DNA of 29,208 nt from Candidatus Helarchaeota archaeon (GTDB lineage Archaea > Asgardarchaeota > Lokiarchaeia > Helarchaeales > RDOG01): NCBI GenBank assembly GCA_029838215.1, contig JALGVI010000045.1, positions 1 to 29,208 on the forward strand, given 5' to 3'. Both the position numbers and the translations under genes were made by a program. Below the pieces are notes generated by a model, which made no database searches, was not told where the DNA came from, and worked only from the letters and a program-made list of their open reading frames with translations. This document shows, piece after piece, positions 1 to 4,237 of the stretch (its first letter is position 1; each line of letters starts with the position of its first letter).

Positions 1-2645
1 TTCTTCAGGAATGAAATCCTTGGCGGCATCTCGAGCTGAATCATCGAACTTTTGAATGCGTCGTTTTCGTTTTAATTCATCGGGTATGTGGTCTTTCGCC
101 ACGTTTCTGGCAGAATCGCTGAGTTTTGGTTTTGATCGCGGTCGCTTTGTCTGGTAAGGGAGGAAATCCTTTGCTTCATCTCGGGCTGTATCTTGGAGCA
201 AAATTTTACGTTTTGGTAACTTTTTTCCAGCTACTTCCTCGAGGATTTCTTCGTGTTCTTTGTCGACTTTCGCAAAAGTAGGTCCTGTTGATTCTATTTT
301 TTTTCGTTTTTTCTTTTCACGGGCGTGAATGGGTTTTGTGTCAAATTTTTTGAAGGTGGGTTCATAAGATTCGGATTTTTTTCTTCTTTTTACAGGAGGT
401 GCTTTTTCCTGTAAGAGATCAGGATCAGATTCTTTTTTCTCGGCTTGCATTTCCTGTTCGATTCTTCGAAATGTTCCTCCTTCATCTTCTAGCTTCTGTC
501 TTTTCCTAACGGGTTTTTTTGTAGGAAGAAGAACAGAATCATCTTTTTCCCATTCCTCTTTCATTTGAGCATCAATTCGTTTGAAAGTACCTTCTTCATC
601 CATGTATTTCAATGATTTTTGTTCTAATTCATCAAAGTAAGACCTTAATTTCTTTTTCTTATCTGCCGTGATGATATATTCATCTTTATCGTAAATTTCT
701 TTCATCTCTTTCTCTATGCGTGCAAATGTTCCCTCATCATCTCTCAAGATTTCACGATATCGTTTAATTTCAACTCGGGCAGCTGCTTCGTATTTTTCAC
801 CCAGTAAATCATCCATCAACTCGGCAGTAGTGCGATATTTTTTGGCACGGGCAAGCAAGTTTTCTTCTTTTCGTTCCCATTCTGGTTTTTCCTGCGAAGG
901 GATGAAATCCTGAGCAACATCACGAGCCGAAAAATCTTTTAATTCGGTCAAATCACGTCTTTTTGACTTTTTTCCAGCTACTTCATTGTAAACTTCCTTG
1001 TATTTCTCGTCCATTAGTTCGGCAGTTGTTCTATATTGACTTGCAGCTGCCAAATCTTTAGATTTCGAAGTATCGGGAAGAAGTTCGGCTTCTTTGGAAT
1101 CAGGAACGACCAAGTCGGGAGCCGCATCTCTTGGAGAAAAATCTTTTAATTCGTCCTGAATGGAACGTCGCCGTTGGACTTTAGAACCGGCAATACGTTC
1201 ATATTCATCTTTTAATTCAGCATCTAAGAGCTCTGCCGTGGTCAGATATTTTCCCTTCGTGGATCTTCTAGGTTTTGTACCCATCTGTTTTATTTCCTGA
1301 GAGCTGACACCTTTCTCTATCTTAGGAGACCAATCTCGTGCCACATCTCGTGGAGAAAATTCCAAGAGTTCATCTTGCTCTTCTCCTTTCCGTCTTTGAG
1401 TTGGAGTTACTTGGTTTTCAATAATCCCCTGAGCATCAAGCCATTCCGCAGTAGAACGATATTCGACACCGGAAGTTTTACCACGAGTAGGACGCACGGG
1501 TTGTGCTTCATCAAGCAGGTAATCTTGGGCAGCATCTCTAGGAGAGAACTCCTTCACTTCATCTTGAATGACCCTTTTTCGTGTCGTGCTCCCAACAACC
1601 GTTTCGGGAGCACTTCCCTGTTCGGCATCAAGCCATTCAGCGGTTGAAGTAAATCTTCGGGAATGTAATCTTGTACTATGTCTCTAGGAGAGAACTCCTT
1701 CACTTCATCTTGAATGACCCTTTTTCGTGTCGTGCTCCCAACAACCGTTTCGGGAGCACTTCCCTGTTCGGCATCAAGCCATTCAGCGGTTGAAGCGGTT
1801 GAACGATATTCGGCGTCTGGAATTTTACGTCTGGTTTGAGTGGCAGGATGTAAATCTTCGGGAATGTAATCTTGTACTGCATCTCTAGGAGAGAATTCTT
1901 TAACATCTACTTGACTCATGCCTGCTCTGCGGGGCTTCAATAATTCTTGTTCTTCGACATTGCCTTGTTGTGCTTCTAGCCATGCAGCAGTTGATTCATA
2001 CCCGTCTATGTCAGATTGTGATTTCGGGACTTGAAATTGTCGTGCCACTTGTGATTCGGGGGATCCCGTTTCTGTTTCTGTATCGAGTGCTTTCCAAGTT
2101 GGAATATATTCTTCATTTTCAGCAATCGGACTCTGAGTTGAAGGTTGAGTTTCTGTTTCAGGTGGAATTCTCTGTTTTAAAATTTCTGCAGAATTGGGCT
2201 CAACGGCGGCAGGTTCTTTCTTTGGACCCTTTACTAGAGCATTTAATTGATCGAGCATGCTATCCACGGATGATCCTCCTGAATAGGCTTCTTCTTCCCG
2301 TGTCATATCTTGTTCTTGATAATCATAACTCTGCTCTAAATTAGAATGCTCTGCGGTAGGATATTCCTGATAATGTCCTTGATATTGTTCCGCTTGGTTC
2401 TGATCGTATTCCATTGGAGTTTGTTCTTGATAATATACGGCTTGAGCTTCCTGGCTCACATCATGACCGTGATCTGAAGTGATTTCTGTAGCAGTCTGCG
2501 GTGCTATTTCTCCTTGTGGATAACAATATGCACAATAAGAACCGTATGCGTAGTAACAGGAGGTGCACAGTGGCGTCCCGCAGTTTTGACATTGAATGAC
2601 TTGTTCAGCTTCAAAATTCCTACCACATCTTCCACATTGGGGCAA
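1..2645 (-). CDS. Large low-complexity repeat protein with N-terminal 8-Cys (FYVE-like spacing) zinc finger; frameshifted near 1650; 3' end outside the window
   Basis: Track ORF 1554..2645 starts MPQCGRC-x11-CQNC-x4-CTSC-x7-CAYC. Manual translation of the frame with codons starting at 1650 is stop-free down to base 1 (550 codons, ...TSTAEWLDAEQG...DDSARDAAKDFIPEE) and carries the same motifs. This frame has no Met until about 1284, so the two frames look like one gene. Confidence 0.8.
1535..1795. repeat. Exact 115-bp direct repeat (1535..1649 = 1681..1795, period 146 bp); also 1649..1677 = 1850..1878
   Basis: Base-by-base comparison: both copies run tctctaggagagaactcc...cattcagcggttgaag. 146 is not a multiple of 3, which explains the frameshift. 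Confidence 0.95.
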
Positions 2646-3034: not shown

Positions 3035-3703
3035 TTGGAGAAAATCGATATAGAAAAAATCATAGGCGGAGTTCTGGCAAGGCGTGTCATCCTTGAGACA
3101 TTGTTAGAGGGTCCTAAGACAGGAACAGAGTTAAGATGGGCTTTGGCAGATCGATTTGATCGACGAATCGATGGTGTATCAGATGCCTTGCTATATTTCA
3201 ATTTACAACACCTTGAAAACACGGGTCTTATATTGCGAAAAAAGGAATGGAAGTCGAAGTACGCCAGCATCATTGCCAGTAAAATCCAATTTATTCGTAA
3301 CTTTTTTCATGTTTCGGCTCCAGTTACAGTGGTGAGTGGTATAGATGATGATCCAAACCTTATACGTACTTTAAGGATGAATTTCAGACGCCAAAAAGCC
3401 ATTTCACCTGAAAAATTTTATTTTATCGCATCTGATAAGTTAAAGCGAAGGGCCGCAGGATTATTTGAAGGTGTTAAGATTTTTTACGTCGAAGATGAGG
3501 TTTTCAAGAACGATTTCAGAAACATGTCTTCCTTCATACGAGAAATAATAGACGGTGAAATCGCATCAAATGAAATCATTGTAAATGTTGCATCAGGATC
3601 TCGGATTTGTTCTTTAACGCTTTTAAGATTTGCAATGCAATATACACTTCGTTGTTTCTACTTAGACAAAAATGAAGAAATTTATTGGTTTCTAGACGAG
3701 TAA
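3035..3703 (+). CDS. Winged-HTH (PadR/ArsR-like) + C-terminal CARF-like domain protein; putative ligand-responsive transcription regulator
   Basis: TTG start with AGGAG at 3024-3028. N-terminus RRVILETLLEGPKTGTELR...LYFNLQHLENTGLI fits a wHTH. C-terminus VTVVSGIDDDP ... IIVNVASGSRICSLTLLRFA...CFYLD fits the CARF pattern (strand-(T/S)GG(R/K)-helix-FY). Confidence 0.7.
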   Translation: MEKIDIEKIIGGVLARRVILETLLEGPKTGTELRWALADRFDRRIDGVSDALLYFNLQHLENTGLILRKKEWKSKYASIIASKIQFIRNFFHVSAPVTVVSGIDDDPNLIRTLRMNFRRQKAISPEKFYFIASDKLKRRAAGLFEGVKIFYVEDEVFKNDFRNMSSFIREIIDGEIASNEIIVNVASGSRICSLTLLRFAMQYTLRCFYLDKNEEIYWFLDE

Positions 3704-3730: not shown

Positions 3731-4237
3731 TTATTGTTTCAGAAGAAGATCAGACAGAAGTTTAAAGGATTCTTCTACATTTTCTCCGGAACTCGCAGAT
3801 GTTTCGAAAAATGGAACGTTTATTTTCTTGCTATACGCTTCACCCTCTTCCTTGGTAACTTTTCTTTGATCTGCAAGGTCGACTTTGTTTCCCATTAAGA
3901 TACTAGGAATATCCCCACAATAATTGCGAAGGTTTTCTACCCATTCATCCAACTCATCATATGTTTCCTTTCGAGTAATGTCATAAACTATTAAACAACC
4001 ATTTGCTTCTTGGTAATAATCTCGGCGAATCCATTTAAATCTAGAATCACCAGCTAAATCCCAAATCTGGAGAAGAACACGTTTATCAGGATAATCAAGA
4101 TACTTTATTGTAAAATCTGCTCCAATCGTTTTTAAATACGATTCGGAAAATTTTCCGGTTGTAAATCGTCGAATCAAGCTCGTCTTGCCAACTGCTGGTT
4201 CGCCAATTGTTACAATTTTAAATCCATAGGTCTTCAT
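3731..4237 (-). CDS. Rab-like small GTPase (Ras superfamily)
   Basis: G1 GEPAVGKT, G2 YLKTIG, G3 WDLAG, G4 NKVD, G5 ETSA. RabF1-5-like motifs IGADF, LLQIW, RFKWIR, YYQEA, LIVYDIT. AGGAG upstream. Confidence 0.95.
   Translation of the reverse strand: MKTYGFKIVTIGEPAVGKTSLIRRFTTGKFSESYLKTIGADFTIKYLDYPDKRVLLQIWDLAGDSRFKWIRRDYYQEANGCLIVYDITRKETYDELDEWVENLRNYCGDIPSILMGNKVDLADQRKVTKEEGEAYSKKINVPFFETSASSGENVEESFKLLSDLLLKQ

Follow-up and report, generated by a model that had tools for sequence, protein, structure and literature searches.

Our analysis of a 29,208-nt stretch of DNA from a Candidatus Helarchaeota archaeon (the 'window', which is the entire contig C115 of a 170-contig, 3.6-Mb assembly) concerns a gene on its minus strand, which starts with a TTG codon at position 2645 and runs past position 1, that is, beyond the end of the contig. 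We read this locus as one gene, and neither as two genes nor as a pseudogene, the product of which is probably a single cytoplasmic protein with a length of ∼1,100 residues; an N-terminal zinc finger is followed by arrays of short motifs (classes A, B and C) and by a small C-terminal module consisting of a β-hairpin and a hydrophobic helix (LELFMFLT...). Sequence comparison shows both homology and colinearity of the C motifs and the C-terminal module with the tails of a family of actin-related proteins (Arps). It is tempting to propose, albeit at a confidence somewhat short of even, that this protein, hereafter the zinc-finger scaffold, is a multivalent, largely disordered adaptor tied to an actin-related system, in which the C helices together with the terminal module would act in trans as the Arp tail does in cis.

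Two comparisons connect the scaffold with the Arps: (i) BLASTP against an Arp-tail protein aligns three colinear TFxKID (C) units (5e-12), and (ii) hhalign matches the C-terminal module to the Arp-tail family with a probability of 97.3% (E 1.9e-11), the last ∼200 columns being colinear. The C-terminal 205 residues are missing in this assembly and are supplied by sibling assemblies of the same strain (protein P0003; L001:10001-12118); since the module falls outside of the window, P0003 was used for the module comparison. The tailed-Arp family comprises ∼16 database members of 694–939 residues from metagenome-assembled genomes (MAGs) of Helarchaeota and Promethearchaeota, all of which are annotated as hypothetical, and its members combine an actin-like head with a winged helix and a 300–450-residue tail. 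AlphaFold2 modelled head and winged helix of one such protein with confidence, and its tail as disordered with a short helix at each motif. The tail is a fixed series of motifs, most of which are centred on a (T/S)-(F/Y) pair, that is, one to nine copies of YVPSFxRLDxxMPDQ, one to three copies of xTFxKIDxExxxxWxKDxTI (∼38 residues apart), two copies ending in PKGFFD/E, LPTFLxIK...ADLLKPK, and a terminal PTFL...EEQL...EEEERKKKEKEEKLL. Shared with the scaffold are the xTFxKIDxxxxxxW C-type helices, the (G/S)(F/Y)FDE motif and the terminal module, and a sixth C-type motif in the acidic region of the scaffold (YIPTWKALD) is of the same type as the YVPSFxRLD repeats, although a single YIPTW copy here faces the one to nine copies of the Arp tails. 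Unlike the tailed Arps, the scaffold carries a zinc finger as well as A and B arrays, and Pfam searches gave no signal of an actin fold (PF00022) or a winged helix in it.

Scaffold and tailed Arps are distributed in a complementary fashion among the genomes compared. This genome encodes Lokiactin (378 residues) and a separate actin-like/winged-helix protein (483 residues) that ends directly after the winged helix and thus has no tail. In the sole other genome of the same taxonomic family, Candidatus Helarchaeota archaeon LW55_61 (G001), the corresponding protein (570 residues; L024:985-2697, minus strand) carries an unrelated, K/E-rich and coiled-coil-looking C-terminal extension devoid of C motifs. 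Hence, both genomes of this family (f1) combine the zinc-finger scaffold with an Arp/winged-helix protein that lacks the motif tail. In the sister families f2 and f3 (five genomes), the actin-like/winged-helix protein does have the tail (open frames of 715–861 residues), and no zinc-finger scaffold was found in these five genomes with the queries used. Five genomes outside of the order yielded no match covering the winged-helix part. The occurrence of the same tail either fused to the Arp or placed on a zinc-finger protein constitutes a domain-fusion argument for a shared function, and it is the homology of C motifs and module with the Arp tail, in combination with the tail-less Arp of this lineage, that leads us to propose a role in trans. 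As a separate observation on actin-fold fusions, a metagenomic protein of 1003 residues (P0026) combines Pfam Sec23_trunk, VWA_2 and Actin in one chain, which is an unusual fusion of coat-protein-like and actin-fold parts.

If the scaffold is such an adaptor, its motifs would fold on binding, it would supply in trans what the Arp tail supplies in cis, and it would connect a partner with either the Arp/winged-helix protein or the cytoskeleton formed by Lokiactin; the zinc finger may then serve as a second anchor while the B-type array would add valency. Several observations weigh against this proposal. Motif A and the B-type motifs, which make up the bulk of the protein, are present in none of the 16 Arp tails, so that the partner of the A/B region may be unrelated to actin, and the scaffold does not have the ...EEKLL peptide with which Arp tails end and which is conserved among them. 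The complementary distribution is derived from seven genomes, all of them 82–94% complete, which as relatives of one another do not count as independent samples. The scaffold gene of G001 and the Lokiactin gene are arranged convergently, but this adjacency is conserved neither in the strain studied here nor in a Lokiarchaeota MAG that encodes an orthologue. Finally, fusion of the tail to an Arp indicates a shared context and not direct contact.

The gene is interrupted in the window. The first reading frame (363 codons) ends with 33 residues that represent the next repeat unit read out of frame, and the second (550 codons) is open to the contig end; the break at ∼1650 lies within a near-identical 142-nt direct repeat whose copies are spaced by 146 nt, a distance not divisible by 3, while the next older copy, 201 nt away, is in frame. 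Two sibling assemblies of the same strain, L001 (GCA_054384155.1) and L002 (GCA_054383755.1), are identical to the window across 700 nt upstream and 1400 nt downstream of the junction, and exhibit differing insertions or deletions inside the same near-identical repeat and nowhere else. When the three assemblies are united, with gaps filled from whichever has letters, the frame is open throughout and 1,103 residues long. The frame split is therefore probably an assembly artefact, as the assemblies are broken differently at the same repeat and their union is open, and the actual number of repeat units could exceed the count in every assembly. The contig end likewise falls within two near-identical 24-residue repeat units, and the remaining part of the gene was not found on the other contigs of this assembly. 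All three assemblies have the gene called as two hypothetical proteins or in truncated form. A programmed frameshift was considered and rejected, given that the assemblies break at differing places and have no slippery site in common. Three open reading frames on the plus strand that overlap the gene (65, 90 and 124 residues) are taken as shadow frames. A 9-nt tandem duplication (TTCAACCGC twice) at 1773-1803 of the minus strand, resulting in STASTAEW, is found in this assembly only, and the siblings have one copy.

Motifs were located with regular expressions applied to the translation, and all of their coordinates refer to the minus strand (Table 1). The original prediction, made from the letters of the window, had placed motifs A, B, C and a shortened B in this region of an Asgard archaeon, for which a host of Helarchaeota type was then confirmed; each motif is found within a few bases of the place predicted, and none of 2000 residue shuffles reached any of the observed motif counts (expected mean ∼0). 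Alternation of A and B at about 64–71 residues and recurrence of the short B every 25 residues had likewise been foreseen, and spacings measured in the joined protein are 64–71 (A to A), 63–73 (B to B) and 24–25 residues (short B). The extent assigned at that time (1-2000) was too short, as the gene starts at 2645 with the zinc finger and passes the contig end, and the frame break, the zinc finger as a part of this gene and the missing C-terminal residues had been overlooked. Along the whole chain, at least 13 B-type motifs share the core [PA]-R-D-x-A-x-D-aromatic-I/V-P, spaced by 64–71 residues in the first half and by 24–25 residues in the second. Elsewhere in this genome the A, short-B and Trp-bearing C patterns do not occur, and the short C pattern matches once, by chance, in an 80-residue frame on contig C83.

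Table 1. Features of the zinc-finger scaffold gene, of the joined protein and of neighbouring genes within the window
Feature	Position	Strand	Description
Reading frame 1	1554..2645	minus	363 aa, TTG start; zinc finger, Q/E/Y-rich acidic region, A/B units 1-2
Reading frame 2	1..1650	minus	550 aa, open to contig end; A/B units 3-7, motif C array, first three 25-aa repeats
Near-identical 142-nt direct repeat	1508..1795	minus	copies 1508-1649 and 1654-1795, 92% identical; contains the frame break
8-Cys zinc finger	2520..2645	minus	CxxC-x12-CxxC-x4-CxxC-x8-CxxC, two-zinc, FYVE-like spacing
Sixth C-type motif (C1 type), YIPTWKALD	2108-2082	minus	regular expression; in acidic region
A/B array	811..2000	minus	seven A alternating with six long B
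Motif A (Y-R-S/T-T-A-E-W/L-L/M-D), seven copies	2000-1974, 1793-1773, 1647-1627 (partial, at frame break), 1461-1435, 1248-1222, 1035-1009, 837-811	minus	regular expression
Long motif B (K-E/D-F-S-P-R-D-x-x-Q-D-Y/F-I-P), six copies	1901-1869, 1700-1668, 1554-1522, 1365-1333, 1146-1114, 939-907	minus	regular expression
C array	262..732	minus	five C-type motifs and SYFDELE; best copy followed by xxMKEEWEKDD
Motif C (G/P-T-F-x-R/K-I/V-D/E), five copies	732-712, 591-571, 477-457, 360-340, 282-262	minus	regular expression
Short-B array start	1..189	minus	first three of seven 24-25-aa repeats; contig ends inside array
Short B (S/T-A-R-D/N/E-x-A-K-D-F/H-I/L-P), three copies	189-157, 114-82, 39-7	minus	regular expression
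Zinc-finger part	residues 1-42 of joined protein		8-Cys finger
Acidic part	residues 43-215 of joined protein		acidic Q/E/Y-rich region with YIPTW motif
A/B part	residues 216-640 of joined protein		seven A and six B motifs alternating, every 64-71 residues
C part	residues 641-825 of joined protein		five C motifs and SYFDELE
Short-B part	residues 826-965 of joined protein		seven 24-25-residue repeats with short B motif
C-terminal part	residues 966-1103 of joined protein		degenerate C motif, predicted β-hairpin, sole hydrophobic stretch (LELFMFLTILDKLIF)
Winged-helix and CARF-like protein	3035-3703	plus	222 aa; weak Pfam Card1-CARF and PadR matches; syntenic in G001
Ras-family small GTPase	3731-4237	minus	∼1 kb upstream of scaffold gene; syntenic in G001

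The seven A/B units are pairwise 20–75% identical, and the older units (20–48%) share little except the A and B cores, which bears out the predicted design of conserved short motifs in variable charged linkers. The divergence of the old units with retention of their cores argues for selection acting on the motifs rather than for mere recency of the repeats. Charged residues account for 38% of the protein and for ∼50% in the C-motif and 25-residue regions (fraction 0.38–0.51), the net charge is near zero and the hydropathy is low, a composition that fits a disordered polyampholyte. Consistently, AlphaFold2, provided with P0003 and four relatives, predicted no globular fold (mean predicted local distance difference test score, pLDDT, of 49; predicted template-modelling score, pTM, of 0.18), in agreement with the large disordered protein that had been anticipated. 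In these models helices extend from each A motif to the next B motif, the B-to-A interval is disordered, and the first three C-type motifs, which are those aligned with the Arp tails, form predicted amphipathic helices with coil in between. A transmembrane tail anchor was dismissed as the principal explanation of the C-terminus, because the sole hydrophobic stretch is ∼17 residues long and contains Asp and Lys.

The zinc finger resembles FYVE domains in the spacing of its ligands. Its CxxC-x3-F-x7-CxxCG-x3-CxxC pattern agrees with ligand pairs one to three in the FYVE domains of EEA1 and RUFY1, and when a profile built from the fingers of three orthologues was compared with solved structures, the best single-stretch matches were FYVE domains (EEA1, RUFY1 and WDFY3; E 0.007–0.16). 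Alignment of the three fingers yields 11 invariant columns including seven of the eight Cys, the last Cys being off by one column in one orthologue. However, the Pfam matches to FYVE (PF01363; E 0.034, 14.7 bits versus a cut-off of 27.8) and to Prok-RING_1 (E 0.019) are both sub-threshold, the basic RRHHCR and WxxD lipid-binding motifs are found in none of the three orthologous fingers, and FYVE domains have a much longer last loop. Hence, 'FYVE-like' may be regarded as a lead and not as family membership.

When 1.84 billion representative proteins were searched exhaustively with phmmer, eight matches only were retrieved, all of them from Asgard archaea and with no eukaryotic homologue among them: two pieces of the present gene, hypothetical protein EAX96_05685 from a Lokiarchaeota MAG (987 residues), two further members of the scaffold family, namely a 502-residue protein whose start lies inside the repeat array and a 337-residue fragment, and three Arp tails, of which two are attached to an N-terminal actin fold and one is a tail fragment. 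The close family, characterized by finger, B-type array, C motifs and C-terminal helix, was seen in two genomes of Helarchaeales and in two further metagenome assemblies. Its second Helarchaeales member is the syntenic 937-residue orthologue in G001, and the two genes represent two genera. An alignment-based scan of the genome collection retrieved the G001 locus only, a word-indexed homologue search with the 987-residue orthologue returned only itself, and a search of 400 genomes of the phylum for the C-terminal module gave, beyond G001, only weak matches to actin-fold proteins.

Both the 937- and the 987-residue orthologues are uninterrupted single frames. They share with the present protein the 8-Cys finger, B arrays with a period of ∼25 residues, C-type motifs, SYFDELE and the C-terminal module, and the motifs recur at an overall identity of 26–34%, in support of the original prediction. 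Across the family, the features held in common are the finger, the B-type motif, the C-type motifs and a C-terminal module comprising a C-type motif, SYFDELE, the β-hairpin and the helix LExFMFLTxL. Invariant alignment columns fall on A-R-x-x-A-x-D-x-x-P-x-E, that is, on the B-type motif, strict copies of which ([AIP]-R-x-x-A-x-D-aromatic-I/V-P-E-E) number 10 here, and 9 and 14 in the two orthologues. In contrast to both orthologues, the present protein exhibits a lineage-specific expansion of the 64–71-residue A/B units: motif A is multi-copy here and single-copy or absent there (a single A-like copy occurs in the Lokiarchaeota protein), the short repeats number 7 here as compared with ∼20, and the terminal ...LL peptide of the orthologues is missing.

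No family was assigned to the protein in Pfam and NCBIfam searches, in line with the original prediction, which had not recognized a family and had likened the chain to tau, nebulin or WH2 arrays. Read as family membership, that likeness did not hold: WH2 (PF02205), nebulin (PF00880) and tau-MAP (PF00418) gave no Pfam match even at E values up to 10, and no LKKV-type motif, a criterion for WH2, follows the C helices. The repeat period of nebulin is 35 residues and that of tau is 31, whereas periods here are 24–25 or 64–71 residues. The cytoskeletal link that had been suggested receives support, albeit indirectly, via the homology of the C array and the C-terminal module to the Arp tails. Tandem WH2 proteins (Spire, Cobl), nebulin and Lifeact-type motifs do share a common design with the present protein, namely short amphipathic helices or peptides repeated on a disordered chain, and Spire combines its WH2 array with a FYVE-type finger; by sequence, however, the scaffold was not assigned to the WH2 or nebulin families. 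The nearest concept in the literature is a short linear motif that binds actin filaments, described as a helix with anchors P1, P4, P8 and P9 (V..L...FE type), in a paper that does not mention archaea (PMC13364712). Comparison by eye with that description indicates that motifs B and C meet at most two of the four anchors. A feature-based search of the ESM Atlas gave no usable match, and no description of either the scaffold family or the tailed-Arp family was found in the literature searched.

By analogy with these arrays, one might conceive of the scaffold as an archaeal invention comparable to Spire or nebulin, in which the C helices would capture Lokiactin or the Arp/winged-helix protein, the B motifs would bind along a filament or lattice, and the finger would anchor the chain at a membrane; so specific a picture appears improbable to us.

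Upstream synteny with G001 (Table 1) says little, since it extends over a long block of unrelated genes including housekeeping genes. Downstream in this strain (L001:12254-13806), genes encode a 147-residue protein, a RagA/Arf-like GTPase (186 residues) and a longin/roadblock-like protein of 147 residues, and such a trio of GTPase and regulators is a typical Asgard arrangement. The neighbourhood in the Lokiarchaeota MAG with the 987-residue orthologue is unrelated and has nothing in common with either.

Readings other than an actin-linked adaptor have to be weighed against this evidence. The scaffold might be a multivalent disordered adaptor for a non-actin system, such as trafficking that involves membranes or small GTPases, or a complex of the nucleic-acid or PCI type, with the shared tail acting as a generic localisation or docking module that sister lineages simply joined to the Arp/winged-helix protein, which we regard as possible though on balance unlikely. 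The FYVE-like spacing of the finger, the Ras-family GTPase gene located 1 kb upstream in both genera, the downstream GTPase and longin/roadblock-like genes, the weak DDRGK/PCI-like signal of the Arp's winged helix, and Arp tails devoid of A and B motifs are all consistent with it. Yet the FYVE match is sub-threshold and lacks the basic lipid-binding motif, the upstream synteny is unspecific and absent in the Lokiarchaeota MAG, and small GTPase genes are abundant in Asgard genomes, which makes their proximity weak evidence.

It appears quite improbable that the chain has no discrete partners and serves as a charged spacer, as an entropic bristle or as a polyampholyte that forms condensates, its motifs being self-association helix stickers. 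High charge at nearly zero net charge, the long helices predicted between A and B, and a repeat number that varies widely among orthologues (∼22 units in G001, counted by eye) would suit such a chain, but the Pro, Asp, aromatic and Trp positions are strictly conserved amid otherwise free linkers, a pattern seen more typically where a peptide is recognised in a groove than with generic stickers. A real frameshift in a decaying or split gene, with a motif pattern resulting from a recent neutral repeat expansion, we consider very unlikely. The frame is broken in the repeat in all three assemblies of the strain, and units 2 and 3 are nearly identical at the DNA level, which points to a recent duplication; against decay stand the differing break positions with an open union, a contig end that also falls into a near-identical repeat as is typical of assembly failure, the 550 and 363 codons still open on either side of the break, intact orthologues, and old units that retain their motifs despite linker divergence. 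The actin-linked adaptor, acting in trans as the Arp tail does in cis, is thus the reading to which we tentatively adhere.

For annotation, the case calls for caution, as near-identical internal repeats are the cause of the split or truncated gene calls in every assembly of the strain. Asgard archaea build an actin cytoskeleton, for which profilin and gelsolin-type proteins are the only regulators known (PMC9834061, PMC7444086). A family of disordered motif arrays that shares its tail with a lineage-specific Arp, the two being fused or separate depending on the lineage, provides a testable handle on the partners of archaeal Arps. Should the reading by analogy with Spire and nebulin turn out to be true, the scaffold would constitute, together with the tailed Arps, an Asgard-specific system for nucleating or tethering actin, the evolution of which would have been independent of that of the WH2, formin and Arp2/3 regulators in eukaryotes. 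The family further shows that these archaea have scaffolds of multivalent short motifs, which are a hallmark of how eukaryotic cells are organised.

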